In this document: one piece after another, positions 18,225 through 59,929 of the stretch
How the letters are laid out: the number at the start of each line of letters is the position of its first letter
Numbering within the stretch: position 1 is the stretch's first letter
Notes under the pieces: model-generated
Seen by the model: the letters and a program-made list of their open reading frames with translations, nothing else
What the model was told of the DNA's origin: nothing
Databases searched by the model: none
DNA from: Mobula hypostoma
Taxonomy: Eukaryota
Assembly: GCF_963921235.1 (NCBI RefSeq)
Contig: NW_026948142.1
Span: 124,001-188,000, forward strand
DNA: 64,000 nt
Direction of reading: 5' to 3'
Translations under genes and position numbers: made by a program

Positions 18225-18510
18225 TCTGCACTCCGGCTCCGCACCAGAAGATCCCGAGACCCAGCGGACGCGGGCTCAACTGTCCCGGACACAGACCCGA
18301 GCTTCCCCATCTGACCCCGTCCTCATCGGCCCCGCCCCCAATCGCACCGCCCCCCCCCATCTGACCGCGCCTCGTCCCCTCCCCAGGTACCCGGATTACT
18401 GTGAGAGGCACGTGACCCGCGCGTTTGGCGCGAAATGGCTCGGTGAGTACTGACCTTCAAACTCGGCCAAGACTCTGATTCTCCCCTCAGCCCTGGTCCC
18501 GTCTCCGTTT
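18225..18510 (+). promoter_or_regulatory. CpG-island promoter of the Ldh_2 gene: GC boxes, E-box CACGTGAC (18409-18416), palindromic E2F site TTTGGCGCGAAA (18424-18435)
   Basis: The most conspicuous CpG-dense non-repeat stretch in the window. It has CCCCGCCCC and CCGCCCC boxes near 18330-18355 and lies directly at coding exon 1. Confidence 0.7.
18435..18442 (+). CDS. Ldh_2-family oxidoreductase gene, coding exon 1 (ATG GCT CG; M-A-R split codon)
   Basis: ATG at 18435 in a CpG-rich island, followed by the consensus donor GTGAGT at 18443. Phase 2 matches exon 2 (CG+G = Arg). Confidence 0.75.
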
Positions 18511-18983
18511 GATCTCCCCCTCCTTCCTTCAGCCAGCCCTCACCTACCAACAACAGGAATTCTGCAGACGCTGGAAATTCAAGCAACACACATCAAAGTT
18601 GCTGGTGAACGCAGCAGGCCAGGCCTCACCTACCTACCAGCAGTATCTCAATCATCCATCTCCCTTTGTGTTTATCATCCTCCACCTGAATTCCTTCTTC
18701 CTTATTCCTCCTGTGTTCACCACGCCTTCCTACACGTCGCTTACTCCCTTCCTCCAACACTCCCTGCCCTGTTTCTCCAGCTCCTTTTCACCATTTATGT
18801 CATAACAGTGGAAGCTCTGTTTATTGTTTCTATCTTTGCTCTCCCTCCGTCAACAAACTTGGGCCATTGTCTCACCAACTACTCACTCCCCATCCAGGGT
18901 CACACCAATTGCTCATTCTCTGTCCATTATCCCACCGACTGCTCATTCCCTGTCCAGCGTCTCACCGACTGCTCACTGCCGGG

Positions 18984-19164
18984 CACAAAATAATCTGCAG
19001 ATGCTGGGTTCAAAGCAACACTCACAACAGGCTGGAGGAATTCAGCAGGTCGGGCAGCATCCGTGGAAATGATCAGTCGACGTTTCGGGCCGGAACATTG
19101 ACTGATCATTTCCACGGATGCTGCCCGACCTGCTGAGTTCCTCCAGCATGTTGTGAGTGTTGCT
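18984..19164. mobile_element. Penelope-type short repeat palindrome (about 75-bp arms, centre 19089)
   Basis: 19014-19088 is the near-perfect reverse complement of 19090-19164. Confidence 0.8.
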
Positions 19165-19284
19165 CACTCCCCGTCCATGGTCTCTCCGACTGTTCATTCC
19201 CTGTCCAGGGTCTCACCGACTTGCGCATTCCCATCCATGCTCCCATCGACTGCTCATTCCCATCCATGGTCTCACAGTGCATAT

Positions 19285-28705: not shown

Positions 28706-28854
28706 GTACCTGGTGAGCCGGCCTGAACTGCACCAGTTCATTGAGTGCTGTATGAGTGCAGTTGGAGCGCGAAGCAGCCATGGATCAGCAATGGCCGATG
28801 TACTGGTGGAAGGAGATTATCGAGGACATTATAGCCACGGACTGAACAGACTTG
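28706..28854 (+). CDS. Ldh_2-family oxidoreductase, exon 2 (YLVSRPELHQFIECCMSAVGARSSHGSAMADVLVEGDYRGHYSHGLNRL)
   Basis: T-rich tract + tgcAG acceptor (28704-28705); donor GTGTGT at 28855; 149 nt. Contains the family motif D-x-R-G-x-x-S-H-G. Confidence 0.92.
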
Positions 28855-29252
28855 GTGTGTGCACATAATATTTCTGTTTGCCCTGTGGTACTGAGGATAA
28901 CTCTTCACTCACCATGAGGAACATACATGCCGTTTACTATATACACACACACACACATTCGCACCACTATCTGACAGAAGTTTCTGCACACCTCACTTCT
29001 CAATGACCATCCCCTATTCTTACATCTGTTCCCTTGTTAATAACTCTTGTTTGAAAACATTTCTCAAATACTTAATTTAACTTCAAAATCTGCATGCTAT
29101 AATTTCATTGTGCCTTATTATGTGCAGTTTACTATCAGAGACTAGTTTGGGAAAAGGGTATAGTTGATGTTTTGAGCTGAAACCCTTCGGCAGGACTTTT
29201 CTCCATAGATGCTGCCGGGCCTGCTGAGTTCCTCCAGAGTTTTGTGTGTGTT

Positions 29253-29920
29253 AGATTAGATTATGAGGACACTCAGTCCTCGTTTATTGTCATTTAGAAA
29301 TGCATGCATTAAGAAATGATACAATGTTCCTCCAGAGTGATATCACAAAAAAAGGACAAACCAAAGACTAACACTGACAAAACCACATAATTATAACATA
29401 TAGTTACAACAGTGCAAAGCAATACCATAATTTGATAAAGAGCAGACCATGGGCACGGTAAAAAAAAAGTCTCAAAGTTCCGATCGACTCCCGATAGTCC
29501 TGAAAGCAGGCGGCAAAAGGGAGAAACTCTCCCTGCCATAAACCTTCAGGCACCGACAACTGCCGATGCATTGGAAGCACCCGACCACAGCCGACTCTGA
29601 GTCCGTCCGAAAACTTCGAGCCTCTGACCAGCCCCTCTGATACAGCCTCCCGAGCACCATCCTCTGCCGAGCACTTCGACCTCGCACCGAGCAACAAGCA
29701 AAGCCGAGGACTCGGGGCCTTCTCCGGAGATTTCGGACCACACAGTAGCAGCGGCAGTGAAGCAGGCATTTCAGAGGTTCCTCCAGATGTTCCTCCATGC
29801 TCTCACATCAGTCTCTATGAAATCAGGATTATGCACAGCACCCTACTTGACAGATAACAGATATCATTTCACCGGAGTGGCCACTACGCGCTGCATCGTG
29901 CTGCCATCTTCTCCTCCTCC
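29253..29920 (-). mobile_element. Non-autonomous LINE-related element (about 670 bp)
   Basis: Minus strand begins GGAGGAGGAGAAGATGGC and ends in a (TAATC)n tail; CpG-rich; no credible ORF. Confidence 0.55.
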
Positions 29921-30418
29921 TTGCTAGGGTTAATTCAAGATTGTTTAATGTTATTTCCAGTATACTAGTGTAAAGGAAAACAACACAATTGTTACACCGG
30001 ATCTGATGCAGTGCAAAAAAAACACAATAAGATAAAGAACACAACAATAAAAAATCAGTAATAGAACAAATTATTGTCCTTGAAGATTAGGAAATTGAGA
30101 AACTTACTGATTTAATCAATGACATTTATGAGACTGGAATAATACCAGGAGGGATGAAAAAATCAGTATTTATCACTCTTCCTAAGAAAGCTGGAGCAGT
30201 AAAATGTGAATTACATAGGACCATAGGTTTAATGAGTCATATCACCAAGTACGTCTAAGAATTTTGATGACGAGCTAAAAGTAAGATACAAGCTGAAATA
30301 GGCAAAGAACAATGTGGTTTTGTGAAAGACAAAGGTATAAGAAACGCAATATTGATGTTAAGGTGTCATAAGGCGGTGGCTGGGAACGGACCCAAGTGCA
30401 AAACACAGACACTGAAGT

Positions 30419-33400
30419 CTTTTTTCTTGGGGATGCGTTCAGGCTTTTTCTTTCTTTCGCCGGATTTTCTTCCTTGGGGTTGGTGGGATGTTTGGGGGTA
30501 TTTTTGTATTTTGGGGTTTATTGTGGGATTTTTTTTCACACACACTTTTTGTATTTTTCCCCATTATGGAGTTCCGGTTTTCTATTTGGTTATATTCATC
30601 ACCGCCATCTTTGATTAGCCCACGATGGTATGCGTGTATTGTCGTATTTAGAATAATACTTAATGGTACTTAAACAGATAAGCGTTATTAGTTGGAATGT
30701 ATGTGGCTGGAATCACCCTATTAAGAGAAGGAAGACATTTAAAGTTATTAATCGATTCCAGCCCGATATAATTTTTGCTTAAGAAACGCCTATCAGAACG
30801 GGCGATCAAAATAGATTTTTTAAAACATGGAAGGGCCTTCAATACCATGCTACTTGTCAAAATAAAACAAAGGGAGTATCTATTTTTATTAAATCTAATA
30901 TTTTATTTATTCAAGAAGACATTGTCTCAGATAATAATGGTAGATTTTTAATTATTAAAGGAACAATTTGTAATAGAAAAATTGTCTTGGTTAATCTATA
31001 CGGACCTAATGTAGATGATCCTTTTTTTTAAAATGTATTTGGTTTATTACCAGACTTAAATGAATATATGCTGCTGATGGGAGGTGACTTCAACTGTTTC
31101 TTAAGCCCTTTGATTGACAAAAGTTCAACCAATCAGCAGCTTCCGAGTCATTTGGAAATGTGAATATGATGCTATTGCAGTCTCGGATCATGCGCCTTTA
31201 AGTTTAACTTTTGAGTTAAATGATGTTAGTAATGTAATCTTGCCTTGGCGCTTTCCGGTAAATTTATTACAAAGTTCGGACTTTGTTAAATTTTTAGAGA
31301 TTCAGATAAATGATTTCTTTCTTTTTAATAATACGGGAGATGTTTCGAAATTGATTATATGGGATACACTCAAAGCATATTTGCGAGGTCAGGTAATATC
31401 TTATTTGGCTAAACTCAAGAAACTGACAAAAATAGAATTAAACGCAAACAACAGGAATTCTGCAGATGCTGGAAATTCAAGCAACACACATCAAAGTTGC
31501 TGGTGAACGCAGCAGGCCAGGCAGTATCTCTAGGAAGAGGTACAGTCGAATTAGATAGAATTTCCAAACTAATTAAAGATCTAGATAATACTTACGCAGT
31601 TTCTCCTAATGTTGATTTATTTAAACAAAGGGTTGAACTTCAATCACAATATAATTTACTATTAACTTATCCTATTGAAAGAAATTTGCTTAAATTAAAA
31701 AGTCAATTTTATATGTTTGGAGATAAAAGTAACAAGCTATTAGCATCTCATCTTAAAGCAGTTAGAGCTAAAAGACAAACTTTAAAAATTCGTAAGAGAG
31801 ATGGTAGGTTAGCTTGTAATTATGAAGATATTAATTTTTTCAAGACTATTACAGTGAACTCTGTAAATCTCAGTTTCCAGCTGACCCTTCTAATATGTAT
31901 GCCTTTTTACAAAAAATTGACTTTCCTAGATTATCTGTTGAAGATCAGCAAATTCTTGATGTTCCTCTTACCGAAAGAGAAATTCAGAAAGCTATTCTCT
32001 CAATGCAATCTGGTAAAGCTCCTGGATTGGATGGTTTTTACTGTAGGATTTTATAAAAAATTTGAACATTTGTTTACTCCTTATATGTTGGAAATGCTTA
32101 AAGATTCTTCTCTGTTAGGAGAGTTACCTTCCACATTTTATGAAGCTTCTATTTCTTTAATCCTTAAGAAAGATAAAGATCCTACTGATTGTGCTTCATA
32201 TAGACCTATATCATTATTAAATGTGGATGCCAAAATTCTTTCAAAAATAATGGCTAATCGGATGGAGAATATACTAGCTAAAATTGTTTCTCAGGATCAA
32301 ACAGGTTTTATAAAAGGCCGTTATTCTTTTTCTAATACTCGGAGATTGTTAAGTATTATATACTCATCCCTTTCTAAGACTCCCCAATGTGTTGTTTCTC
32401 TAGATGCTGAAAAGGCATTTGATAGAGTTGAATGGAAATATCTATTTAAGGTTTTAGAGAAATTTGGCTTTGGTACTAATTTTAATAAATGGATCAGATT
32501 GATATAGAAAAGCCCTATTGCCACTGTTATCACTAATAATTGTAGATCCTCCATTTTCCAACTTTCTCAGGGTACGAGACAAGGATGTCCGTTAAGTCCT
32601 CTGTTATTTAACTTGATGTTGGAACCCTTGGCTATTGCACTTCGTGAAGCTAAAAATATTCAAGGAATTTCTATAAATGGGACTATTCATAAGATCTCCT
32701 TTATGTGGATGATCTTTTGGTTTATATTTCGAATCCCGAAGAATCTATTCCTAGCTTATTGAAATTTTTAAATGAATTTGGATTGTTTTCAGGATATAAA
32801 TTAAACCTGCATAAAAGTGAATTATTTCCTTTAAATGATTCTGCTTCTATATATGATAACATTCCTCTAAAAGTTACGGATTCTTTTAAATATTTAGGTA
32901 TTACCATTACTAAAAATTATGGAGACCTTTATAGAACTAATTTAGTTCCCTTAGTGGATTTTATGAAGCAATTTTTTTCTAGATGGAGTCCACTTACACT
33001 TTCATTAGTAGGTCGAATTCATGCAGTTAAAATGATGATTTTACCAAAATTTTTATATGTATTTCAAAACAGTCCTATTTTTCTAACTAAGAAGTTTTTT
33101 GATCAAGTTGACTCTATATTACATCTTTTGTTTGGAATAATAAAAGACCAAGAATTGGTAAATGTCATTTACAAAAATTAAGAAAGGATGGGAGTCTTAC
33201 TTTGCCTAATTTAAGAATGTATTATTGGGCGGTTAATGTACGTTATGCGTATTCTTGGTTATATTGGACCGTTAAAAAGGAACGACCATCTTGGGTTGAT
33301 TTGGAATTGAAAACTGTGAAACAATTTCATTTAACTTCATTATTAGGATCTCCTTTACCTGTACAATTAGCCAAAATTTCTATTCTAAATATAAATCCTA

Positions 33401-37699: not shown

Positions 37700-38450
37700 G
37701 AAAATTTGGGCCAAGAAATGGCAGATGGAGTTTAATTTAGCCAAGTCTGAGGTAATGCGCTTAGGAAGGTCAAATGCAAAAGAAAGGTATGCAGTATATA
37801 GCAGGACCCGTAATGTACAGGGTGATAGTTGGATAAAATACCTTAGTTCCCTGAAAGTCCAACACAAGGGTAGTACAGAAGGCACATTGCATGCTTGCGT
37901 TCATTAGTCAAGGTATTGAGTATAAGGGTTGGGAAGTCGTATTGCAGCTGTGCCACTACTGGAGTACTGTGTATAGTTCTGGTCACAGGAAGGATGTGGA
38001 AGTTTTGGAGAGAGTGCAGAAGAGGTTCACTGGGATGCTACTACATTGGGGAATATGGCCTATAAGGAGAGGTTGGGCAAACTTGGCTTGTTTTCTCTGG
38101 AGTGATGGGGGCTGAGGTGAGATGTGGTAGAAGTTTATAAAATGATAAGAGACAGAGGTAGGATTGGCAGTCAGATTCTTTTCCTTTGATGACATAAGTT
38201 TATAGTGAGAGGGGAAAAGTTTAAAGGAGTTTGTGAGGCAAGTTTTGATTTCACTCAGAGTTCTGGGTGCCTGGAACTGGCTGCCAGGTACGGACACAAT
38301 GGCAACATCTAAGAGGCAATTAGATAGGCAAGTGAAGAGGCAGGGACTGGGAGATATGAATCATGTGTAGGCAGATTGGATTACTTTAGATTTGCATTGT
38401 GACGGGCACACACATGTTTGCTGAAAGGCCTGTTCAGTGCTGTGTTGTTG
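37700..38450 (+). mobile_element. Old CR1 3' fragment
   Basis: KWQMEFN, ERVQKRFT. Confidence 0.7.
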
Positions 38451-38547
38451 TATGTATGTGATTGGAGTCAGGCAGTTTGGCCTAAGGGACAGGTTTAAGG
38501 TCAGAGCCAGCCATGTGCATCTCATTGTGACTCTTTCAATATCACAG

Positions 38548-39107: not shown

Positions 39108-39108
<1 letters not shown>

Positions 39109-39144: not shown

Positions 39145-39151
<7 letters not shown>

Positions 39152-43000: not shown

Positions 43001-46000
43001 CATCCAAGTCATTTATAAAAATCACTAAGAGTAGGGGTCCCAGAGCAGATCCCTAAGGCACTCCACTGGTCACCAACCTCCATGCAGAACATAACCACTC
43101 TTTGCCTTCTGTGGGCAAGCCAATTCTGGATCCACAAAGCAATGTCCCCTTGGATCCCATGCCTCTTTACTTTCTCAATAAGCCTTGCATGGGGTACCTT
43201 ATCAAATACCTTGCTGAAATCCAGATACACTACATCTACTGCTCTATCTTCATCAGTGTGTTTAGTCACATCTTCAAAAAATTCAATCAGGCTCATAAGG
43301 CATGACCTGCCTGTCACAAAGCCATGCTGACTATTCCTAATCATATTATGCCTCTCCAAATATTCATAAGTCCTGCCTCTCAGGACCTTCTCCATCAACT
43401 TACCAACCACTGATGTAAGACTCACTCGTCTATAATTTCCTGGGCTATCTCTACTCCCTTTCTTCAATAAGCGAATAACATCCGCAACCCTCCAATCCTC
43501 CGGAACCTCTCCCGTCCCCATTGATGATGCAAAGATCATTGCCAGAGGCTTGGCAATCTCCTCCCTCGCCTCCCACAGTAGCCAGGGGTACATCTCATCC
43601 GGTCCTGGTGGCTTATCCAACTTGATGCTTTCCAAAAGCTCCAGCACATCCTCTTCCTTAATATCTACATGCTCAAGCTTTTCAGTCCATTGTATGTCAT
43701 CCCTACAATCACCAAGATCCTTTTCCGTAGTGAATACTGAAGCAAAGTTTACACTGTCACACTTGATTGCTCCTATTCTCTCAAGCCTTGCCCTCTTGCT
43801 CTTCACATACTTGTAGAATGCCTTGGTGTTTTCCTTAATCCTGTCTGCCAAGACCTTTTCGTGGCCTCTTCTGGCTCTCCTAATTTCTTTCTTAAGCTCC
43901 TGCCTGCTAGCCTTATAATCTTCTAGATCTCTATTGTTATGTAGTTTTTTGAACCTTTTGTAAGCTCTTCTTTTCTTCTTGACTAGATTTACAACAGCCT
44001 TAGTGCATCACGGCTCCTGTACCCTTTCATCCTTTCCCTGTCTCATTGGATCGTACCTATGCAGAACCCCACGCAAATATCCCCTGAATATTTGCCACAT
44101 TTCTTCCGTACATTTCTCTGAAAACGTCTGTTTCCAATTTATGCTTCCAAGTTCCTGCCTGATAGCCTGATATTTCCCCTTACTCCAATTAAATGCTTTC
44201 CTAACTTGTCTGTTCCTATCCCTCTCCAAAGCTATGGTAAAGGAGATAGAATTGTGATTACTATCTCCAAAATGCTCTCCCACTGAGAGATCTGACACCT
44301 GCCCAGGTTCGTTTCCCAATACCAGATCAAGTGCAGCCTCTCCTCTTGTAGGCTTATCGACATATTGTGTCAAGAAACCTTCCTGAACACACCTAACAAT
44401 CTCCACCCCACCTAAACCCCTCGGTCTCGTGAGATGCCAATCGATATTTGGGAAATTAAAATCTCCCACCACAACAACGCTATTATTATTACACCTTTCC
44501 AGAATCTGTCTCCCTATCTGCTCCTCGATGTCCCTGTTACTATTGGGTGGTCTCTAAAAAATCACCCAGTAGAGTTATTGACCCCTTCCTGTTCCTAACT
44601 TCCACCCACGGAGACTCTGTAGACAATCCTTTCATAACTTCCTCCATTTCTGCAGCTGTGACACTATCTCTGATCAACAGTGCCACGCCCCACCTCTTTT
44701 GCCTCCCTCCCTATCCTTTATGAAACATCTAAAGTCTGGCATTTGAAGTAACCATTCCTGCCCTTGAGCCATCCAAGTCTCTGTAATGGCCACTATATCA
44801 TATCTCCAAGTGATGATCCATGCTCTAAGCTCATCTGCTTTGTTCATAATACTCCTGGCATTAAAATGGGCACATCTCAAACCATCGGTCTGAGCGCGGC
44901 CCTTTTCTATCACCTGCCTATCCTTCCTCTGGCACTGTCCCCAAGCTTTCTCTATTTGTCAGCTAACCGCCTCTTCCTCCATCACTTCAGTTCGGTTCCC
45001 ACTCCCCAGCAATCCTAGTTTAAACTCTCCCCAGTAGCCTTCGCAAACCTCCCCGCCAGGTCCCCTAGGGATTCAAGTGCAACCCATCCTTTTTGTACAG
45101 GTCACACCTGCCCCAAAAGTAGTCCCAGTGATCCAGAAATCTATATCCCTGCCCTCTGCTCCAATCCCTCAGCCACGCATTTATCCTCCACCTCATTCTA
45201 TTCCTATACTCACTGTTGCGTGGCACCGGCAGTAATCCCAAGATTATTACCTTTGTGGCCCTGCTTCTCAACTTCCTCCTTAACTCCCTGTAGTCTGTTT
45301 TCAGGACCTCCTCCCTTTTCCTGCATATGTCGTTGGTACCAATATGTACCACGACCTCTGGCTGTTCTCCTTCCCACTTCAGGATATCGTGGACGTGATC
45401 AGAAATATCCCAGATCCTGGCACCTGTGAGGCAAAATACCATCCATGTTTCTTCCCTGCATCCACAGAATCACCAGTCTGGCCCCCTAACTATAGAGTCC
45501 CCTATCACTGCTGCCATCCTCTTCCTTTCCCTACCCTTCGGAGCCACAGGGCTAGATCTGTGCCAGAGGCACAGCCACCGTTGCTTCCCTCAGCTAGGCC
45601 GTGTCCCCCGACAGTGCTCAAACAGGAGTACTTATTGTCAAGGGGGACAGCCACTAGGGTACTCTCTAGTATCTGGCTCTTGCCCTTCCCTCTCCTGACT
45701 GTTACCCACCCACCTGTCTCCTGACACCCTAATGTGACTACCTGACTACCTGCCTATAGCTCCTCTCTATCACCTCCTCACTTTCCCTGACCAGACGAAG
45801 GTCATCAAGCTGCATCTCCAGTTCCCTAATGCTCAACGCACCCTGCGCAGATGTGGCCATCCAGGAGACTGGGAGTTTCCCGAACTTCTCACATCTGACA
45901 CCGAGCACAGAACAATGGCCTCACACACATTCTTCCTGTCTGTAATCTACACAAGCAACCTACCTTGCCTCAACCCATTATCGCCTTCCTTCTCTGTCTC

Positions 46001-46575
46001 CCTCTACTCTGTCACCTGCTCCTCTGATGCCCGCTCTATAAAGTTGTCTCCTTTTAAACTCTTCTTACTGTTCTAACTGGCTGACTTCCATGCGCTTGTG
46101 CAGTTGTGCTCCAATCAAACCGCTGAAAAAATAACCGTTTCCTTTTAAACTCTTCTTGCTGTTCTCATTGGCTGACGTCCACACGCTTGCACAGTCGTGC
46201 CCCGATCAAAGTGCTGAAGAAAAATGAGGAATGTTTGATAGCTGTGGGCCTGTACTCTGTGGAATTTGAATTGAGCAGATGTGGAAAGGATGGTTTCCGT
46301 GGTGGAGGAGTCTAGGACAAGAGGGCACAGCCCTCTTTAGCCAGATGGTGGTGAATTTGTGGAATTTGTTATCTCAAGCAGCTGTAGAGGCCAGGCCATT
46401 GGGTGTATTTAAGGCAGAGGTTGAAAGGTTCTTGATTGGCCGTGGCATTAAAGGTTACGGGGAGAAGGCAGGGGAGTGAAGCTGAGGAGGGGGAAAGGAT
46501 CAGCCAAGATTGAATGCCAGAGCAGACTCGATAGTCCAAATGGCCTATCTCTGCTCCTATGTCTTACTGTCTTAT
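40087..46575 (+). mobile_element. CR1 LINE (40087-42062 and 46226-46575), with further CR1 insertions
   Basis: YFASVLT, WKIANVIP, QHGF ORFs. Confidence 0.8.
42063..46225 (-). mobile_element. Near-full-length CR1 LINE (ORF1 esterase, ORF2 APE-RT)
   Basis: Minus-strand ORFs 42206-45442; tail reads TAGAAACATAGAAA on +. Confidence 0.9.
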
Positions 46576-46830
46576 GTAGGAATGATGGTGTTAAACGCTG
46601 AGCTGTAGTCAATAAACAGCATCCTTACATAGGTATTTGTATTGTCCAGGTGATCTAAGGTTGCATGTCCGCCTTAGACCTATTGTGGCCATAGGTAAAT
46701 TGCAGTTGGTCCAGGTCCTTGCTGAGGCAGGAGTTATTTCTAGCCATAACCAACCTCTCAAAGCACTTCATCATCGTAGATGTGAGCACTACTGGACAAT
46801 CATCGTTAAGGCAACTCACAATGCTCCTAG

Positions 46831-49800
46831 ACCATAAGACAATGAAATATAGGAGCAGAATTAGGACATTTGGCTCATTAAATCTGCTCTGCCACTTCAT
46901 CATACCTGACCCAGTTTTACTGTCTGCCCCAATCTCCTGTCTTCCCCCCGTTTCCCTTTATGCCCTGATCAATCAAAAATCTGTCAACCTCTGCCTTAAA
47001 TATACATAAAGACTTGGCTCCACAGCTGCCAGTGGCAGAGAATTCCACAGATTCAACACTCTCTGGCTAAAGAAATTCGTCCTCATCTCCATTCTAAAAG
47101 GACACCCCTCTATTCTGAGGCTGTCCTCTGGTTCAAGACTCTACCAGCATTGGAAACGTCCTCTCCACATCCACTACATCAAGAGCTTTCACCATTCAAA
47201 AGCTTTCAATGAGGTCACCCCTCATTCTTATGAATTCTAGTGAATACAGGCCCAGAGCCATCAAGTCGTCTTCATATCACAAGCCATTCTATCCTGGAGT
47301 CATTTTCGTTAACCTCCTTTGAACCCTCTCCAGTTCAGCATATCCTTTCTGAGATAAGGGGCCCAAACCTGCTCACAATACTCCAAGTGAGGCCTTGCCA
47401 GTGCTTTATGAAGTCTTAACATTACATTCTTGCTTTTATATTCTAGTTCTCTTGAAATAAATGCTAACATTGTATTTGCTTTCCTCACCACAGATTCAAC
47501 CTGCAAATGAACCTGTAGTGAATGCTGCACAAGGATTCCCATCCCTTTGTGCCTCAATTTTTTGTATTTTCTCTCCACTTATATAATAGTCAACCCTTTC
47601 ATTTCTTCTACCAAAGTGCATGATGATACACCTTCCAACACTATATTCCATCTGCCATTTCTTTGCCCATTTTCCTAATCTGTCTAAGTCCTTCTGTAGT
47701 CTCTCTACTTCCTCAACACTACCTACCCCACCACCTACCTTTGTATCATCTGCAAGCTTTGCAACAAAGCCATCAATTCCAACATCCAAACTATTGACAT
47801 ACAATGTGAAAAGAATCAGTCCCACCACAGACCCCTACACCAACACCACTAGTCACTGACAGCCAACCAGAAAAGGTTTTGCCTCCTGCCGATCAGCCAC
47901 TGCTTAATCCATGCTAGAATCTTTCCTGTAATACCAAGGGCTGAAAGTTTGTTAAGCAGCCTTGTGTGTGGCACCTTGTCAAAGGCCTTTTGAAAATCCA
48001 AGTACACAACATCAACTGATTCTCCTTTGTCAATCCTACTTGTTATTTCTTCAAAGAACTCCAATAGATTTGTCAGACAAGATTTTCCCTTGAGGAAACC
48101 ATGCTGACTAAGGCCTATCTTATCACGTGCCTCCAAATACCCTGAGACCTCATCCTTAATAGTCGACTCTAACACCTTCTCAACCACTGAGGTCAGACTA
48201 ATGGGCCTATAGTTTCTTCTGCCCCTCTCCCTTCTTAAGAGTGGAGTGACATTTGCAATTTTCCATTCTTCCAGAACCATTTCAAAATCTAGTGATTGCT
48301 GAAAGTTCATTACTAATGCCTCCACAATCTCTTCAGCCACCTTTTTCAGAACCCTGGGGTGTACACATCTGGTCCTGGTGACTTATCTACCTTCAGATCT
48401 TTCACTTTCCTAAGAACCTTCTCTGTAGTGATGGTAACTTCACACACCTCATGATCCTGACACCTGGAACTTCCATCAAACTGCTAGTGTCTTCCACAGT
48501 GAAAACTGATGCAACATACTTATTTAGTTCATCTGTCATTTCTTTATCCCCATTACTACTTCTCGAGCTTCATTTTCCAGTGGTCCAATAATCACTCTTG
48601 CCTCACTTTTACACTTTATGTGTCTGAAGAAACTTACAGTATCCTCTATAATATTATTGGATTGCTTACTTTTGTATCCATATTTACCTTCTTAATGACT
48701 TTTTAAATTGCCTTCTGTTGGTTTTTAAAAACTTCCTAATCCTCTAACTTTCCTCTAATTTTTAATCTATTAGATGCCCTCTCTTCAGCTTTTATATTGG
48801 CCCTGACTTCTCTTGTTAGCCACAGGTGTGTCACCTTTCCTTTAGAGTATTCCTCCTTTGGGATGTACTGTATATATCCTGTGCCTTCTGAATTACTTCT
48901 AAAAATTCCAGCCATTGCTGCTGTGCTGTCATCCCTGCCAGTGTCCTTTTCCAATCAGTTCTGGTCAACTCCTCTCTCTGTAATTTCCTTTACTCCACTG
49001 TAATACTGATATGTCTGACTTTAGCTTCTTCTCAAATTTAGAGTGAATGCTATCATATTATGATCACTTGCCCCTGTGGGTTCTTTTGCTTTTAGGTCTC
49101 TAAGCAATTCTAGTTCATTACACAGCACCCACTCAAGAATAGCTGATTCCCTAGTGGGCTCAACCATGAGATGCTCTAAAAAGCCATCTCATAGGCATTC
49201 TAGAAATTCCCTCTCTTGGAATCCAGCACCAACCTGTTTTCCAATCTACCTGCATATTGGAGTCCCCCATGACTATTGTAACATTGCCCTTTTGCGTGCA
49301 TTTTCTGTCTCCCATTGTAATTTGTACACCACATCCTTACTACTGTTTGGAGGTCTGTATTCAACTCCCATCAGGGTCTTTTTACCCTTGTAGTTCCTTA
49401 GCTTGATACACCTTCTGACCCTATGTCATCTCTTTCTAATGATTTGATTTCATTTTTTACCATCAGACCAACGCTGCCCCCTCTGCCTTCCTGACTGTCC
49501 TTTTGATACAATGTGTATCCTTGGACATTAAGCTCCCAGCTATAATAATCTTTCAGCCACGGTTCAGTGATGCCTACAACATCATATCTTCCAATCTGCA
49601 GCTGTGCTGCAAGTTCATCTACCTTATTCCGTATTCTGCGTGCATTCAGATACAACTCAGTCCTATATTCGCCCTTTTTGACTTTGTCTGCCTTTTGCAT
49701 TGTATTGACTGCAATTTTGCCCAATCAGCAACCTCACTACACATTGCTTCTATTTGTACACCAACTACCTCATCTTCAGCGCTATTTTCCACCTTTCCTC

Positions 49801-50965
49801 TGGTACTTCTTACATTGAAATATATGCAGCTCAGGACACTAGCTGCAACATCCTCAACCTTTTAATTCCTAACTTTGTCTGCGGTCTTACCAACATCTGC
49901 CTCCACAACCTCTCCACTAACTGTTCTGGCACTCTGGTTCCCATCCCCCTGCAACTCTAGTTTAAACGTCAACATGCAGCATTAACAAACCTTCCCCTCC
50001 AGTTCAGGTGTAAAGCATCCCTTATGTACAGGTCCCACGACCCTACAAGAGAGCTCAATAATCCAAAAATCTTATGCCCTCCTTCTACACCAACTCCTTA
50101 GTTACATATTAGACTGTATAATCTTGCTAGTTCTGGCCTCACTAGTACATGACACAGGTATAAGTCCTGAATCACAGCCCTGGAGGTCCTGACCTTTAAT
50201 TTAACATTTAATTCCCTGAACTCTCTATGCAGAACCTCGTCACTCAACCTACCCATGTCTTTAGTACCTACATGGACCATGACTTCTGGCTGTTCACCCA
50301 CCCATTTAAGAATGCTGAGGACTCGATCCGAGATATCCCAGTCCCTGGCACCTGGGAAGCAACATACCATCCAGGATTCTCGTTCTCACCCACAGAAACT
50401 CCTGTCCATTCCCCCAACTACTGAATCCTTTATCACCACAGCATGTTCCTTCTCCCCATCCCCCTTCTGAGTCACAGAGGCAGATTCAGTGCCAGAAACC
50501 AGACCACAGTGACTTTCCTCTGTTAGGTCATCCTCTCCAACAATATCCAAAGTAATGTACCTGTTATTGAGGGAGATGGCCACATGAGTTCTCTGCACTG
50601 GCTCCATATACCCTTTCCTCTTCCTGACTGTCACCCAGTTTCCCGTGTCCTGCACCTCTCCACTATCACCCCACTCCCCAGCCTCTCAAATGATCCAGAG
50701 TTCATCCAGTTCCAGCTCCAACTCCTTAACGCAGATTGTTAGAAGCTGCAGCAGGATGTACCTCTCGTAGTTGTAGTCAGTAGGGAGGCTGCCTTCCACA
50801 TCCCGCAAGAGGAGCATTCAACTATCCTACCTGGCAGCTGGACTGTCCTAGCTGAACAGATATAAAGAAAGGAAAAAAAAACTTAACCTTGAACTTTTCT
50901 TTCCTTTGCTTTCTCTAACTAAAGCCTCGAAGAACTAAAGGCTCAAGATCACCACTCTGACGCTG
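46831..50965 (-). mobile_element. Near-full-length, older CR1 LINE
   Basis: Minus-strand ORFs 47309-50655 cover RT, endonuclease and ORF1. Confidence 0.85.
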
Positions 50966-53900
50966 CCTAGCTTCTTAGGCTCCTCTTGGACACTGGTATC
51001 ATTGTTGACTTTTTGAAGCAGGTGGGAACTTCCAACTGCAGCAATGAGAAATTGAAAATGTCCTTGAACACCCCCACCAATGGTTGGCACCGGTTTTCAA
51101 AACCTTAGCAGGTACTCCATCAGAACCTCCCACCTTACGAGGGTTCACTCTCCTGAAAGACAGCTTGGAGATCACAGGGTCACCAGGTGTTGCAGGAGTC
51201 CTCATAGCTGTAGTTTTATTCTCCCTTTCAAAGTAAGCATAAAAAGCATAGAGCTCATCTGGGAATGAAGCATCACCGCCATTCATGATGTTGGGTTTTG
51301 CTTTGTAGGAAGTAATGGTGCGCAAAGCCTGCCAGAGTTGACGTGCATCTGAAGTTGCCTCCAACCTCAATTGGAAATGTTCCTTAGCTCTTGAAATAGC
51401 CCTCTACAAGTCATACCTTGTTTTCTCATGCAGACCTGGGTCACCATTGTTGAATGCCACAGATCTAGCATTCTGCAGGCTATGAACCTCCTGGGTCATC
51501 AATAGCTTTTGATCTGGATATGTACAGTAGAAATCCAAACAACATACACAAAATGCTGGAGGAACTCAGCAGGCCAGGCAGTGTCTCGTAGACACACACT
51601 CATCCACACAGGTTTTAATGAAGTCAGTGTAAACTGTGACATAGATGAATCCCTGAATACAGTCCAGCCCACCGATTCAAAACAGTCCTGTAAGCACTCC
51701 TGCACTTCCCTTGTCCAAGCCTTTTTGGTCCCCACTGCTAGTGTTGCAGTCTTCAGTCTCTGCCTTTTCTCAGGGAGTAGAAGTACAGCCAGGTGGTCAC
51801 ACTTTCCAAGCTGGGTGTGTGATAGCACAGTAAGCATTTTTGATGTTGGTATAACAGCGCTCCAGTGTTTTGGTTCCTCTGGTCCTACAAGTGATTTGTT
51901 GGTAATAATTATTTAGAGTCATTTTCAAGCTAGCCTGTTTAAAATTCCGCAGAATAATGAGGAAGACATCATGTACTGTCTCATGCCTGTTGATCACATC
52001 GCACAGTTCATCTAGAGTCTGTTTGACATTGGCCTGCGTACAATCACTGAAATCTCCTGTAGCAGGTAAATGGCACTTGATTGCGAGGTGTTCCAGGTCT
52101 GGTGAACAGGACCCGGCACAGTGTTGCCATGTTTGTACACCATGAGGTGTTGATCATGAAGCATACTTCACTACCCTTGGCTTTAAAAGACTCAGCAATC
52201 CTATCTTGGTGGTATATTGTGAACCCGCCATTCTGAATAATTACATCTGGGTTGGAAGGGGTTAACCAAGATTCCATGAAATAAAAGGCACAAGTGGTCC
52301 TAATGTCCTTGTGATTCAGCACCCTAGCTCTGAGATCTTCAATTTTATTTACCAGAGACTAGGTTTGCCAGCAAGTAATTGATATTAGGAGTTGAAAACC
52401 TTGTCTTCTTAAATGCACTTTTAGCCCAGCACAACTACTCTTATGCCATCTTAAAGGGGCAAGGCTCCGGCCAGAGTCCGATCTATTTCTGTCATTATTG
52501 ATTAGCGATAGATTATTTAATCGCATTAAAACATTGTTACTAACTGTACAAACCTTAGATGCAGTTTTGGGTTCTCAGCTGCAGTAGGCTGAAACGAGAG
52601 TATTTGATTGTTTCTATTAGAGCTGCCGCACAAATTGCCTTTATCGATAGTGCTCCTTGCAAACAAAAACAAATCAAAATAGTCAGGAATCTATTCTTTT
52701 ATTTGGAGCACACAATGCTTAATTAGGACAGGGAACTGTTGCTGAACATTTTCCAACTCTCATCAGTCGCAAGTATGTTGTGTGGCCACTAGGCACTACT
52801 CTGTGCTTAGAGCAAACAGTTTTTAAATAGTGTCTCTGACATGTTTATATTCAAAAAGCACTGATTTTTGTCACTGATAGTGGGTGAATGATAAACAGTA
52901 AGACAATCTGGAACCATTTTTCTCACTGTGCAGTTTCAAGTATTCAGGCTTGGAGATGCCAGAAATTTGAAGGCATCAGCAATCATCTTGAATGTTACAA
53001 TGAAAATGAAGATTTGGAGGATGCAATCATCGAAAGCATTGTTTGAAGGCAGTCCACTTTGTACGATGTGTCTGCACTGATTTTGTTCATTTACAGTTAA
53101 TCAAAACAGCTCATCACTGTACACTAATGATTTCCTCCATCAATAACTATTAGGAACTAATAGTTTTAAGTACCGTTGTGGTATTGGTGATGTTCTAATT
53201 TATTCTGTATTTTATTTAAATATATAATTTGTTACTCAGTTTGTCTTTTACATCTTTTGAACTATTTCCATGAAATTTTGGCTAATTGGTGCAGCTGCTT
53301 AATTGAGCCAAAATGTGCTGGTTCCGATATGTCCCAATTAACTGGAATCTGCTGCATACAAAATTATGAGGAGTGTAGATAGGATTAATGCAAGCAGACC
53401 TTTTCCACTGAAGTGAGGTTGGGTGAAACTAAAATTGGAGTTGGGTCATGGGTTAAGAGTGAAAGGTGAAATGTTTAAAGGAACATGAGGGGGAACTTCA
53501 TCACTCAGAGGGTGGTGAAAGTGTGGAATGAGCTACCAGTGGAAGTGGTGATGTGGATTCAATTAACGTTTAAGAGATATTAGATTGGGTACATGGATGG
53601 GAGGAGTGTGAAGGGCTATGGTCCAGGTGCAGGCCAATGGGACTAGGCAGATTAAGAATATAAGAAATAAACGCAGAAGTAGGCCATCTGGCTTTTCGAG
53701 CTTGCTCCGCCATTCAATAAGATCACGACTGATCTGGTCATGGACTCACCTACTTGCCATTTTCTCATAACCCTTAATTCCCCGACTTTGCAAAAATCTA
53801 TCCGGCCTTGTCTTAAAATATATTTATTGAATTAGCCCCGCTGCTTCATTGGGTAAAGAATTTTTCACAGATTCTCCACTCTGGCAAAAGCAATTCCTCC

Positions 53901-54479
53901 TCATCTTCATCCTAAATCTACTCCCTTGAATCTTGAGGCTATGTCCCCTAGTTCTAGTCCCACCTACTAGTGGAAACAACTTTCCTGCCTCTATCTTATC
54001 TATCCCTTTCATAATTTTATATGTTTCTATAAGATCTCCTCTCATTCTTCTCAATTCAATTACTAGTTTATAATAGATTCATAGTTTGGCAAGGACTAGA
54101 TGGGCCAAAGGGCCTGTTTCTGTGCTGTAGTGTTCCATGACACTTTCCATAAGGATGCTCTGAAACACTGTCTTCCTGAGCAATAGTTTCCCCTCTACCA
54201 TAGTGAATAAAGCACTTGTCTGCATCTACCTGAGGCAGGAATCATGCCACCACCTTCCAGCTAGCGCAGTAAAGTGTTATGCTGACAGCTCACTACTATG
54301 CCACTCCTACATTCATATCCAAATCATTAATGTATATATCAAATAGTAAGGGTAGCAGCACGAATCTCTATGGTACACCGCTGATAGCAGGCTTTCAGTC
54401 ACAAAAACAACCCTCTTGTCTCATATTACCCAGCCAACTTTGCATCCAATTTGTCAACTTGCCTTTTGGAGTTGATTGC

Positions 54480-55416
54480 TGTGACGGGGTCCTGAATTAC
54501 CCCTATGAACTGAGCTTTTGAAAGGAGAGAGAGAGAGTTATTTAACACCAACATGTTGGTTTGAGAGGGAGAGGGACGAAGACTAACTGTTGGACTGTCA
54601 CTTTAAGGCATTGGAAGTAACTTTTGGATTTCTGCTGAGTTGGAGACAGCACCGAGCAGCTCGTAAGTTGCTATGGTGACCGAGGGCGTTATTTAATGGA
54701 CACTCGATGTTATGATTTTCGGCAGGTTGTTGATACTTCTCAAGGACAGTTTGCCTGCTTGTATTTCTTACACAGAGAGAGGAAGGAGGAGTTATTTGAA
54801 TGACAGTTGATGCTCAGCCCCGGAGGATAAATAGGGGGTCAGATGATATAGACCTCAGACACATGTTTGGACACTGAAGGAGCATTGTTGTGCCTGCAGA
54901 AAAAGTGGGTTTTGGAGGATCGATCAGTGGCTCTTGCAGTGAAAAGAGGAAAGGGGTTGACTGGTGAGGAGTTGTCCATGTGCCCACCCTTGCCTGGGGG
55001 ATAGCTCCACCACAGAAAACCGGTCCCCTTTGTTAAAGTCACAGTCGGTGACTTTTAAAGGATTTCAAAGGACAACGAGAAGATTGGCGGTGTCAGCTCA
55101 CCTGAAGACTCAAATCTCTCCCTCTCTCTCTATCACTACTCAACTCAATACCATGAACTGAACTGTACTGAACTTCACTCATCATCGTAAGACTGTATCT
55201 TTTTACCCCTAGATGTAAAGAAGCTTGGTTTTTCTTTCATACATATATATTTCACACTTACTTTTATATAATCATTGCTAACCTGTTTGATTTATCTACA
55301 TTTATATTACTGTATTGCATAGTTACTAATAAATATTATTAGTTTATAGCAATACTGGACTCCAAAGTGTTTTCCATCTCTGCTGGTTCTTTATTCCCGT
55401 CATGGGGTACATGACA
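54480..55416. mobile_element. Solo LTR (937 bp)
   Basis: TGTGAC...TGACA ends; 5-bp TSD ATTGC (54475-54479, 55417-55421); AATAAA near 55328. Confidence 0.85.
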
Positions 55417-55521
55417 ATTGCCGAGTGGGAGGTACGAAAGTCCACGTAAAATACATCAGCTGCGCCGCCCTCAGCTCTGTTGTCACCTCAAGTTGATCAC
55501 TGTGTCGTACTGTCTTCCCAG

Positions 55522-55583
55522 GTTCCAACCATTATGGCATCGCAGGCTTCTATTCCATGCAAGCTGTGAAATGTGGCCTCATT
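55522..55583 (+). CDS. Ldh_2-family oxidoreductase, exon 4 (GSNHYGIAGFYSMQAVKCGLI)
   Basis: ttcccAG acceptor; donor GTGAGT at 55584; 62 nt, phase 1-0. Contains the S-N-H-x-G-x-x-G-x-Y motif. Confidence 0.92.
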
Positions 55584-55639
55584 GTGAGTAAGATGTGCAA
55601 AAAATGTGATTTGGAAGATTGACCTGTTACACACATATC

Positions 55640-58600
55640 CTTGCAGACAGGTTCGCTAGGGCTGTTCAGGAGAGTTTAAAATAATCAAGCAAGAGAATGG
55701 GAACTGGAGTGAGAGGACTGAGGATAGGGTAGTTGGTTTACAAACAGAGGCAGCGTGTGGGTAGACAGCTCGCAAGCAGAAATTGAAGATAGGGAAAATT
55801 GCAATCAACAAGATGAGTTGCAAAGTAAAAAGGGGACAAGTTGAAAAGGGTGATGAATACAGTACAGAAGGTGTTAAAAGACCATAAGATTATCTTTGTT
55901 CCAAATGGACGTCCTTGTATTTTGAGGTTGTGTCCTCTAGTATTATACTACCCCACCACAGGAAACATCATCTCCACATTCATTTACTGAGGCCTTTCAA
56001 CATTCAGTAGGTTTCAGAGAAACCTCATTCTTCTGAATTCAAGTGTGTGCAGGCTCAGAGCCATTAAACACTCCTCATATGAGAAGCCTTTCTATCCTGG
56101 CAGTTTTGAATATTATACTTCTATGCATGCAGCATACGGAATAAGGTAGATAATCTTGTAGCACAGTTACAGATTGGCATGAATGACGTTGTGGGCATCG
56201 CTGAAACATGGCTGAAAGATTATAGTTGGGAGCTTAGCATCCAAGGATAAATATTGTATCGAAAGGATCGGCAAGTAGGCACATGGGGTGGGATGGTTCT
56301 ATAGGTGAAAAAATGAAATCAAATTAGGTAGAAGTGGCATAGGATCAGAAAGTATAGAATCGTTGTGGGTAGATCTAAGAAACTGCAAAGGTAAAAAGAC
56401 CCTGATGGGAGTTATTTACAGACTGCCAAACAATAGCAAAGATGTGGTCTACAAATTACAACAGGAAATTAAAAATGCATGTCAAGAGGGCAATGATACG
56501 ATAGTCAAGAGAGATTTCAATATGCAGGTCGATTAGGAAAATCAGATTGGTGCTGGATCCCAAGAGAGGTAATTTGCAGAATGCCTATCAAACGGCTTTT
56601 CAGAGCAGCTTGTGGTTGAGCCCACTAAGGGCATCAGGTATTCTGGAGTTGGTGTTGTGCAATGAACTAGAATTGATTAGAAAGCTTAAGGTAAAAGAAC
56701 CTTTAGGGGATATTGATCATAATGTGAGAGATTTCACCCTGCAGTTTGAGAAGGATGTGGAAGACTAATCTAGAAGGTTAAGATGCATGGGGTCCGCGGC
56801 AAATAGGCTGTTTGGATTCAGAACTGACTTGCGCATAGATACAGGGGATAGTGGTTGAAGGGACTTCTTCCGTCTGGAGGTCTGTCATTAGTAGTGTTCC
56901 GCCGCGATCTGAGCTGGGACCTCTGCTGTTAATCATGTATATAAATGACCTGGATGACAATGCAGATGGGTGGGTTAGGTAGATCCCAAAGTAGTAGTAT
57001 TCTAAAGGCAGGATAACACAACCACTGCTGACAAGACAAGTCAAAGAGAAGGTATTTAATATTGCAAAAATTAGTGGGAAGTTAGAGGATTGACAAGATT
57101 GTAAAAAACAACAGAAGGCAACTAAGAAAGTCATAAATAAGGAAAAGACAGAATATGAAAATAAGCTAGCCAATAATATTAAAGAGGATACCAAAGGTTC
57201 CTTCAGATACATAAGGTGTAAAAGAGAGACGAGAGTAGATATTGGACTGCTGAAGTGATGCTGGAGAGATAGTAATGGGAGACAGGAAATGGCAAAGGAC
57301 ACTATGGTGCAGCATAATATGGAAGACACCAGCAGTGTGCCAAAGGTCTGTGAGTGTCAGGGAGCAGGAGTGAGTACCATTGCTATTACAAAGGAAAAAG
57401 TGCTAAGCAAACTCAAAGGCCTTATGGTGGACAAATCACCTGGACCAGATGGACTACATCCCAGAGTTCTGAGAGGTTGCTAAAAAGTTAGCAAATGCAT
57501 TGGTTATGATCTTTCGAGAAACACTTGACTCTGGCATGGTTTGAGAGGACTGGAAGATTGCAAATATCTCTCCATTCTTTAAGAAGGGAGCAAGGCAAAG
57601 GGTTATAGGCCACTTTATAGATCATGCTAGCCTCAGTGTTGGAGTCTATTATTAAGGATGAGGATTCAGAGTACTTGGAGACTAATGATAAAATAAGTCA
57701 AAGTCAGCATAGTTTCTGTGAAGGGAAATCTTGCCTGACAGATCTATTAGAGTTTTTCGAGGAAGTAACAAGCAAGGTGGACAAAAGAGAGGCAGTGCTC
57801 ATCATTTCCTTTGGTTTTCAGTAGGCATTTGATAAGGTGCCGCACATGAGGCTGCTTAGCAAGATAAAATCCTATGGCATTACAGAAAAGATACTGGCAT
57901 GAATAGAGGAATGACTGATAGGCAGGAGGCAGTAAGTGGGAATAAAGGGGGCCTTTTCTGGTCGGCTGCCAGTGGTTAGCGGTGTTCCTCAGTGGTCAGT
58001 ATTGAGGCTCTTCACGGAAGAATAAGGGAGGATTTCACATTGTTTGTCAATGATTTAGGTAATGGAATTGATGGCTTTGTAGCAACATTTGTGGATAATA
58101 TGAAGATAGGTGGAGGGGTAGGTAGTGCTGAGGAAGCAATGAGATTGCAGCAGGACTTAGACAAATTGGAAGAATGCGGAAAAAAAGTGGCAGATGAAAC
58201 ACAATGTTGGGAAATGTATGATAATGCATTTTGGTAAAAGAATCAACAGTGCAGACTATATTCTAAATGAGGAGAAGGTTCAAACATCAGAGGTGCAGAG
58301 GGGCTTAGGAGTCCTTGTGCAAAACTCCTAAATGGTTGAATTACAGGTTGTGAATGTGGTAAAGAAGGCAAATGCAATATTGACATTTATTTCAAGGGGA
58401 ATAGAATATAAAAGCAAGGAGATAATGCTGAGCTTTTATAAGACACTAGTCAGGCTGCACTTGGGAGTGTTGTCAACAGTTTTGGGCCCCATGTCTCAAA
58501 AAGGATGTGTTGTCATTGGAGAGAGTCCAGAGAAGGTTCACGAGGTTGATTCCAAGAATGAAAGGGTTACCATATGAGGAGCATTTGGCAGCTTAGGGCC

Positions 58601-59845
58601 TGAAGAATGCCGAGGGATCTCATTGAAACCAACCGAATATTGAAAGGACTAGATAAGGTGGATGTGGAGGGGATATTTTTTGTGGTGGGGGTATCCAGAA
58701 CTAGAGGGCACAGCCTCAAAATTGAGGAGCAACCATTTAGAACAGAGGTAAGGAGGATTTATTTTTGTGGCAGAAAGTAGTGAATCTGAGGAATGCTGTG
58801 CCACAGACTGCAGTGAAGGCCAAATCCATGGGTATACTTAAAGCGGAAGTTGATAGTTTCCTGATTGGTCAGGTCATCAAAGGACATAGCGAGAAGTCAG
58901 GTGTAAGGGTTGAGTGGATTACAGGATCAGCCATGATGGAATGGCAGAGTACACTCTATGGGCTGAATGGCCTAATTCTGCTCCAATGTCTTATGGGACT
59001 TGGGAATCCTTTTGCAGGATTCCCTAAAGGTTAATTTGCAGGTGAGAAAGGCAAATGCAATGTTAGAACATAGAGCATATAAATCTACACCACATCACAG
59101 GCCCTTAGGCCCACAATGTTGTGCGGACCATGTAACCTACTCTAGAAACTGCCTAGAATTACCCTACTGCATAGCATCCTATTTTTCTAAGTGATGTTAG
59201 CATTCATTTTAAGAGGACTAGAATATAAAAGCAACGATGTAATGTTGAGGCTTTATAAGACACTGGTGAGGCCTCACTTTGAGTATTGAGCGCAGTTTTG
59301 GGCTCCTTATCTAAGAAGGATGTGCTAACATTGGAGAGAGTTCGAAGCGGTTTCACAAAAATGATTCCAGGATTGAAAGGCTTATCATATGACAATCACT
59401 TGATGGCTCTGAGCCTGTACTCACTGGAATTTGGAAGAATAAGGGGAGAATCTCATTGAAACGTGTAGAATGTCAAATGACCTCAATAGAGTGGATATGG
59501 AGAGGATTTTCCCCAAACTGGGAAATTTAAGACCAGTGACACAGCCTCAGAATAGAGCAGTATCCACTTAGTATGCAGATGAGGAGGAATTTCTTTAGCC
59601 AGAGTGGTAAATCTGTTAAATTTGTTGCAATGTACAGCTGTGGTGGCCAAGTCATTGGTTATATTTAAGGCAGAGATTGTTAGGTTCTTGATTAATCCAG
59701 GCATGAAGGCATACAGGGTGGGCAGAATGCAGGAGATTGGGTCTGAGAGGGAAATGGATAAGCCATGATCAAATGGCAAAGCAGATGGGTCAAATGGCAA
59801 AGATAGGTAAAATGGCCTATTCTGCTCCTATATCTTATGGTTTTA
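55640..59845 (+). mobile_element. Decayed, nested CR1 elements filling intron 4
   Basis: Fragmented endonuclease and RT ORFs 56547-59194. Confidence 0.8.
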
Positions 59846-59875
59846 TAACAACATTTTTCTCTTTGTATTCTTTAG

Positions 59876-59929
59876 GGGATGTCTTGTACCAACACCTCTC
59901 CATTTGTGGTGGCAACCAGAGCAAAGGAG
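59876..59929 (+). CDS. Ldh_2-family oxidoreductase, exon 5 (GMSCTNTSPFVVATRAKE); gene continues beyond the window
   Basis: Long polypyrimidine tract + tttAG; donor GTAACA at 59930; 54 nt, phase 0-0. The G-x-x-x-T-N motif normally precedes GTNP in this family. Confidence 0.9.

Follow-up and report, generated by a model that had tools for sequence, protein, structure and literature searches.

A Mobula hypostoma orthologue of the aquatic Ldh_2-family enzyme AqE and a possible link to L-2-hydroxyglutarate

RESULTS

The window carries the 5′ exons of the ray AqE gene

We analyzed a 64,000-nucleotide (nt) stretch of the ray Mobula hypostoma (contig NW_026948142.1, positions 124,001 to 188,000; hereafter the window, its first letter being position 1), in which a sequence-only reading had recognized a spliced gene for a type 2 malate/L-lactate dehydrogenase (Ldh_2). 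What the window holds is almost certainly the first five exons of the coding region of the ray AqE ("aquatic enzyme") orthologue, a dehydrogenase of about 361 residues belonging to the non-Rossmann Ldh_2 family. Upon rechecking, the exons, their coordinates, the intron lengths and phases, and the 154-codon frame were reproduced exactly: exons of 8, 149, 189, 62, and 54 nt add up to 462 nt, or 154 codons without a stop, and all four introns (10263, 9693, 16785, and 4292 nt; phases 2, 1, 1, and 0) are bounded by GT and AG. The features are as follows.

18200..18434, plus strand: likely promoter and 5′ untranslated region, CpG-rich; putative role, from the GC and CpG content before the start codon
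18435..18442, plus strand: exon 1, start codon, residues 1 and 2 and two bases of codon 3; RefSeq starts and a contig joint
18443..28705, plus strand: intron 1, 10263 nt, GT..AG, with a remnant of a long interspersed nuclear element (LINE) and several short repeats
28706..28854, plus strand: exon 2, carrying S46, H47, and R51 (S43, H44, and R48 of the ureidoglycolate dehydrogenase AllD); PF02615 positions 2 to 47 and alignment
28855..38547, plus strand: intron 2, 9693 nt, GT..AG, with a reverse-transcriptase (RT) remnant at 31413-32507
38548..38736, plus strand: exon 3, carrying Y55; PF02615 positions 50 to 108
38737..55521, plus strand: intron 3, 16785 nt, GT..AG, with minus-strand LINE remnants at 43009-44553 and 47849-48382
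55522..55583, plus strand: exon 4, carrying H119 (catalytic H116 of AllD); PF02615 positions 112 to 131 and alignment
55584..59875, plus strand: intron 4, 4292 nt, GT..AG, 91% repeated within the window
59876..59929, plus strand: exon 5, carrying T143-S144 (S140-D141 of AllD) and the T150-R151 motif; splice sites and alignment
59930..64000, plus strand: start of intron 5, with a GT donor; the remaining codons (about 207) lie past the window end

When the exons were scanned singly, exons 2, 3, and 4 matched the Ldh_2 profile PF02615 in order (38.7, 52.0, and 16.6 bits), with exon 3 alone exceeding the cut-off of 38.8 bits, which bore out the family assignment of the sequence-only reading, and 72 of the 75 homologues covering the whole 154-residue peptide aligned to it without a gap. 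Exon 2 was covered without mismatch by contigs of 768 to 1429 nt in all four runs searched (X1 to X4), which come from one study and whose RNA nature is presumed rather than on record, and all 18 sampled words of exon 3 were present in these runs. None of the exons lies inside the within-window repeats, which occupy 53% of the window, and the introns hold LINE remnants with endonuclease and RT domains.

The 8-nt exon 1 is the weakest point of the gene structure. Three RefSeq proteins from two rays and one catshark (P0121, P0122, and P0006) begin in the same way, and contigs of X1, X2, and X4 join position 18442 to 28706, skipping exactly 10263 nt at GT..AG. Junction evidence was obtained for intron 1, in these three of the four runs, with only 22 to 23 letters on the exon 1 side, below the 31-letter bar of the tool. 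The region 18200-18500 has a GC content of 0.66 and a CpG observed-to-expected ratio of 0.80, against mostly 0.1 to 0.5 in the rest of the window. Downstream of exon 5, no credible exon 6 was found in the window with the C-terminal half of the stingray orthologue (best E value, 0.28), and a GTNP match at 60064, considered as one of the downstream exons that had been expected, was rejected as a chance occurrence. Likewise, the N termini of Pristis, Narcine, and lamprey proteins revealed no credible exon in the window, and an Rfam search of it returned no matches.

Orthologues of the ray gene in fishes and invertebrates

The 154-residue peptide is 100% identical to residues 1 to 154 of RefSeq XP_062895197.1 from M. 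hypostoma and 92% identical to the "uncharacterized oxidoreductase YjmC-like" proteins of Hypanus and Hemitrygon. Identity is 82 to 86% with other elasmobranchs, close to 70% with bony and jawless fishes, and close to 60% with invertebrates. In trees built on the stingray orthologue P0122, it falls in a fish/invertebrate clade, nearest cartilaginous fishes. The sequence-only reading had presented the gene as hidden and undescribed; it is annotated by RefSeq in rays and sharks, and it was published in 2018 as AqE, an enzyme of the LDH2/MDH2 family that occurs in sharks, teleosts, invertebrates, fungi, and algae and has been lost in lungfish, tetrapods, and land plants, with its function left unassigned and sulfolactate suggested (bioRxiv 10.1101/495713). 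The ray gene is thus an intact-looking, ordinary, and already known gene. A special tie to urea-retaining elasmobranchs, which had also been proposed, does not fit the identities found in teleosts, jawless fishes, and invertebrates. As regards the supposed absence from mammals, no tetrapod, lungfish, or coelacanth was named among the best 120 of 6625 homologues, which extend to molluscs (16 of these rows carry no species name, and clusters show one name each).

Cyprinids (zebrafish, carp) and salmonids are missing from the species named in the protein hits, which do include catfishes, characins, milkfish, pike, and smelt. AqE has reportedly been lost in Cypriniformes and has decayed in Salmoniformes. 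Such losses from aquatic lineages, if real, would speak against a simple contrast between water and land and would make zebrafish unsuitable as a model. Several invertebrate proteins (P0095, P0120, P0189, P0111, P0079, and P0083) bear N-terminal extensions resembling mitochondrial targeting peptides; in the ray and in most fishes, the protein begins with the domain itself. To judge from these N termini, the subcellular location of AqE may differ between lineages.

Fold, catalytic residues, and cofactor residues

A structure model of P0122 (92% identical; predicted local distance difference test score, 87.6) superposed on solved Ldh_2 members with template-modeling (TM) scores of 0.81 to 0.90, including 0.88 for 1V9N of Pyrococcus horikoshii and 0.87 for 2X06, the sulfolactate dehydrogenase ComC. 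The predicted fold is therefore the non-Rossmann three-domain fold of the family. The two invariant histidines (H44 and H116 of AllD) correspond to H47 and H119 in the window peptide, and AllD residues S43, H44, R48, Y52, H116, T156, P158, D174, K224, and G306, whose catalytic and cofactor roles have been described (PMC3527362), are conserved in every one of the 11 animal-type proteins. Among them, S46, H47, R51, Y55, and H119 of AqE are encoded within the window, while the cofactor residues T156, P158, D174, K224, and G306 (AllD numbers) lie past its end, kept in all 11 orthologues, the first four being readable in the RefSeq Mobula model P0121.

Also past the window, P317-E318 of the orthologues stand where the imine reductase DpkA, by the published equivalence, has two arginines; this Arg-Arg pair, which serves the 2′-phosphate of NADPH, occupies the position of AllD D308-Q309 (PMC3527362). 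P317-E318 aligns instead with ComC, which prefers NADH (PMC5695019). Since AqE thus has P317-E318 in place of the arginines and agrees here with ComC, NAD rather than NADP would be its cofactor. An identity as an NAD(H)-linked 2-oxo-acid reductase/L-2-hydroxy-acid dehydrogenase is well supported by inference from the conserved residues and the modeled fold.

A putative L-2-hydroxyglutarate oxidase gene beside some prokaryotic relatives of AqE

We examined the best 80 of 599 candidate prokaryotic loci for an AqE alignment, whose products are 35 to 44% identical to AqE. The commonest neighbor was a flavin adenine dinucleotide (FAD) enzyme: an LhgO-like gene, detected with a profile built from 9 of these genes, is present in 23 of the 80 loci, on the same strand in all cases, within 1.5 kb in 22 and within 300 nt in 18. 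Each of the 15 full-length copies scores above the cut-off of an independent model, that of NCBIfam for L-2-hydroxyglutarate oxidase. The linkage recurs in no fewer than four distinct clades of the tree.

AqE grouped with two prokaryotic subclades, A1 and A2, with local support of 97, 95, and 88, the last under a mixture model; all support values are local, and of ten basal unnamed rows looked up in the AqE-containing clade, only one was confirmed as eukaryotic. R151, encoded by exon 5, is present in each of the 17 animal rows and each of the 10 A1 rows, compared with only 13 of 168 prokaryotic loci overall. Among nine A1 loci in genomes, five have a whole LhgO gene adjacent and one more a 5′ LhgO fragment. 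A metagenome scan, performed as a test after the idea had been formed, revealed 17 further A1 loci, all with R151. In 13 of them the sequence extends 80 nt or more downstream, and 11 of these have LhgO there, versus 9 of 63 other loci of the scan. Seven of the A1 partners were tested: six exceed the cut-off, and the seventh is truncated at a contig end.

A broader claim, that all Ldh_2 genes near AqE are LhgO-linked, was dropped after a larger sample and narrowed to particular subclades. In an early control, LhgO was found in two of five loci scoring above 285 bits and in none of 31 below (2 of 36 overall), and in Ldh_2 loci of Chloroflexota/Acidobacteriota samples (flanks of 1.5 to 3 kb) it was found in 0 of 52, a count that leaves out 10 duplicates and three loci from unpublished genomes (G214, G400, and G425). 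A search of 81 plus 61 genomes for more A1 members yielded none that was new. The long N-terminal extensions of 18 relatives contained no second Pfam domain and so gave no fusion clue, and long open frames over LhgO at L209 and L214 were ruled out as Ldh_2-LhgO fusions, the two genes being in different frames.

Some other neighborhoods were recorded in passing. Six archaeal Ldh_2 genes (L019, L033, L038, L057, L069, and L076) adjoin a divergent or cut FAD oxidoreductase; in L019 and L057, when scanned in frame, its best family was LhgO, below the cut-off, and by sequence it is possibly an undescribed archaeal 2-hydroxy-acid oxidase. A Bacteroidales Ldh_2 clade (L040, L043, L058, L067, L080, and L083) directly follows a YdfG-like short-chain dehydrogenase, and in L007, L028, and L034 Ldh_2 comes after Ni-dependent 2-hydroxy-acid racemases. 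The Chloroflexota genomes of L004 and L006 (G330 and G375) each carry 5 to 8 Ldh_2 paralogues.

Other features of the window

In intron 1, a short repeat that occurs twice in sense orientation (19118-19152 and 25565-25599, plus strand) yields an in-phase start of 12 residues ahead of a GT donor, and these starts resemble the N terminus of the RefSeq Hemitrygon isoform X2; a repeat-derived alternative first exon is possible. In X3, the contig that reads into exon 2 does so from 28 letters of other sequence. An AG at 18385-18386 closes a pyrimidine tract and is a potential acceptor, so that a non-coding exon may exist further upstream, and a CACGTG box, the core of an E-box or hypoxia element, lies at 18409-18414. 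Intron 1 also contains a young LINE copy (21717-24565, plus strand), whose endonuclease and RT frames are split by single stops and whose contig depth is thousands-fold in the four runs. At 60161-62900, a tandem array with a 31-bp unit (29.3 copies at 95% match) gives way to a degenerate array of 15/30/45 nt; these arrays account for the long stop-free frames at 60093-62942, one of which was scanned and gave no Pfam match.

DISCUSSION

A candidate L-2-hydroxyglutarate enzyme

The best overall reading of AqE, to which we give a probability of roughly 0.42, is an NAD(H)-linked L-2-hydroxyacid dehydrogenase, probably acting on 2-oxoglutarate/L-2-hydroxyglutarate. Very probably, as the kept residues and modeled fold suggest, the enzyme works in the fashion of its family, as a dimer that would bind NAD(H) in extended form with the nicotinamide stacked on H47; R51 would hold the substrate carboxylate and H119 (or H47) act as the acid/base, interconverting a 2-oxo acid and an L-2-hydroxy acid. 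The substrate is proposed from the LhgO genes that adjoin part of the bacterial kin of AqE, and the ComC of Methanocaldococcus jannaschii is stated to accept (S)-2-hydroxyglutarate (10.1101/495713). By analogy with these gene pairs, 2-oxoglutarate and L-2-hydroxyglutarate may be the physiological pair, perhaps with oxaloacetate/malate second, a tentative assignment at somewhat less than even odds. Paired with the FAD enzyme L2HGDH/LhgO, AqE could form a loop by which the electrons of NADH reach the quinone pool, or NADH might be parked as L-2-hydroxyglutarate when oxygen is short. That AqE is a dedicated animal enzyme forming or oxidizing L-2-hydroxyglutarate with NAD(H), inherited together with a bacterial Ldh_2-LhgO redox loop, is a bolder analogy and rather unlikely. 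If true, AqE and L2HGDH would constitute an NADH-to-quinone shunt or a hypoxia sink of fishes and invertebrates that was lost in tetrapods, mammals would be left with only the side activities of lactate dehydrogenase and malate dehydrogenase (MDH) for L-2-hydroxyglutarate, and the convergent loss of AqE on land would gain a mechanism.

A number of observations weigh against L-2-hydroxyglutarate as the substrate. The prokaryotic relatives are only 35 to 44% identical, function can drift over 60% divergence, and the LhgO label of the neighbors is itself given by homology only. Subclade A2, equally close to AqE in the tree, has mixed neighbors and no LhgO at any A2 locus, LhgO was missing from the flanks of the 52 Chloroflexota/Acidobacteriota loci, and a fourth tree (112 rows) left the sister group of AqE unresolved and placed HcxB within the eukaryotic clade. 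Members of A1 are few and belong mainly to one phylum (Chloroflexota), so its loci represent few independent events; it lacks R261 and W263, which are invariant in AqE, and some of its clusters hold sugar-type epimerase/dehydratase, Gfo/Idh/MocA, and ATP-binding cassette (ABC) sugar transport genes, so that both enzymes may act on another hydroxy acid. ComC reduces 2-oxoglutarate at 0.2% of its sulfopyruvate rate (PMC5695019), and synthesis of L-2-hydroxyglutarate in animals, flies included, has been ascribed to Ldh and Mdh (PMC11408159 and 10.1101/2020.05.05.078857). In the literature searched, with subscription journals largely outside it, neither an assay of an animal Ldh_2 member nor an Ldh_2-LhgO link was found, in agreement with the earlier statement that animal members are functionally uncharacterized.

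Alternative substrates

The alternative that survives best, though we consider it unlikely, is that AqE is a third, broad L-malate/2-hydroxy-diacid dehydrogenase and that the bacterial LhgO clears L-2-hydroxyglutarate as a side product (metabolite repair). The closest solved relatives, 1V9N and 3I0P, carry a malate dehydrogenase label, but these labels are based on homology (10.1101/495713). In three of the 80 loci the neighbors are aconitase and isocitrate dehydrogenase, and in three they are Ni-dependent 2-hydroxyacid racemases; the rate at which ComC reduces oxaloacetate is 31% of its best (PMC5695019). While three of five LhgO-linked genomes outside A1 are without a canonical MDH over the cut-off, all five A1 genomes tested encode one elsewhere. 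Worm Ldh_2 genes have been treated as archaeal-type malate dehydrogenases, no assay being given in the text available, and one of them, F36A2.3, whose orthology to AqE we infer, is essential and a proposed anthelmintic target; its null is lethal despite mdh-1 and mdh-2, which suggests a non-redundant reaction (PMC8659336). The available portions of PMC13034625, PMC4772804, and PMC6791719 added no assay of animal members. A further point of context concerns flies, in which CG10512 and CG13334 are presumably members of the same Ldh_2 family.

It is improbable, more so than malate, that AqE acts on some other 2-oxo/2-hydroxy acid, such as a sugar acid or an amino-acid-derived oxo acid, with the bacterial LhgO-family flavoprotein oxidizing the same compound. 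Epimerase/dehydratase genes flank A1 in L008, L075, L202, L205, and L212, some of these loci adding Gfo/Idh/MocA, IclR, ABC sugar transport, or DUF1537-type genes; A2 neighbors include dihydrodipicolinate synthase-family and short-chain dehydrogenase/reductase genes, and YiaK, of the same family, reduces a diketo sugar acid. Against this, the neighboring flavoproteins score far above the LhgO cut-off (500 to 560 versus 299 bits), no partner other than LhgO is shared by A1 with at least three further Ldh_2 clades, and in three A1 loci (L018, L041, and L005) the two genes form a bare pair between unrelated genes.

The characterized members of the family were evaluated with the NCBIfam equivalog models, and the orthologues fell short of the AllD, ComC, HcxB, and YiaK cut-offs by about half in each case. 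A ComC-like sulfolactate/sulfopyruvate dehydrogenase of taurine or cysteate metabolism, a role put forward in the sequence-only reading and already in the 2018 paper, is very improbable: NF040650, at 251 bits, scores best among the NCBIfam models and 2X06 ranks second among the structures, but all seven proteins scored 239 to 265 bits against the cut-off of 500, and no sulfonate-pathway gene is among the recurrent neighbors of the 80 loci. Slightly less probable still is a ureidoglycolate dehydrogenase (AllD) of purine/ureide breakdown in urea-retaining fish, likewise proposed earlier, or a DpkA-type NADPH imine reductase. The automatic RefSeq name of P0121 is "ureidoglycolate dehydrogenase-like," and AllD R48 and H116 are kept; yet the AllD substrate residues S140/D141, M251, and R259 align to T143/S144, W, and A in AqE, orthologues scored 179 to 207 bits against cut-offs of 356 and 496 (for P0002, 178.6 against 496.2 with TIGR03175 and 185.6 against 356 with NF011599), AllD lies far outside the AqE clade, the gene is present in teleosts and invertebrates, the Arg-Arg pair for NADPH is missing, and no allantoin genes are among the recurrent neighbors. 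YiaK (NF009750; 147 against 316 bits) and HcxB/YbiC (NF007504; 159 against 336 bits) were likewise not matched by P0002. By the cut-off and residue tests, AqE does not belong to AllD, ComC, YiaK, HcxB, or DpkA, although its chemistry is likely ComC-like. Finally, truncation or decay of the Mobula gene is the least probable of all. The model P0121 (280 residues) departs from the alignment of the family past residue 272, but it comes from a 233-kb contig and up to that break shares 91% identity with the 361-residue stingray protein, as expected of the assembly gap that we read there, and spliced contigs of 1344 to 1429 nt, their 3′ part not seen, could fit a whole reading frame.

What is new here, and of value, is the substrate lead toward L-2-hydroxyglutarate; both the gene and its disappearance from land vertebrates had been published before, and its occurrence in a ray adds nothing to them.

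Comparison with known systems

Escherichia coli AllD, HcxB (YbiC), and YiaK and Pseudomonas DpkA have the fold and cofactor residues in common with AqE, whereas identity is 25 to 31%, their cut-offs are failed, and the substrate-site residues are unlike. M. jannaschii ComC (2X06, EC 1.1.1.337) and P. horikoshii 1V9N are closer, with the same fold (TM score, 0.87 to 0.88), the catalytic histidines, and the NADH-type C-terminal motif; they differ from AqE in an identity of 35 to 36%, in the ComC model score of 251 bits against a 500-bit cut-off, and in the absence of R151. A1, the Ldh_2 found beside lhgO in Chloroflexota and one Acidobacteriota, is itself uncharacterized and is the prokaryotic group nearest to AqE in three of four trees, with N142-T/S143-S144-P145 and T150-R151 in common, while being about 40% identical and without H44, N50, R261, W263, and D316 of AqE. 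The AqE of the 2018 study (bioRxiv 10.1101/495713) is the same gene, forming one orthologous clade with the catfish, gar, hagfish, lamprey, chimaera, and invertebrate proteins; at the gene level the two accounts are identical, and only the proposed substrate differs, being sulfolactate in that paper and, tentatively, L-2-hydroxyglutarate here.

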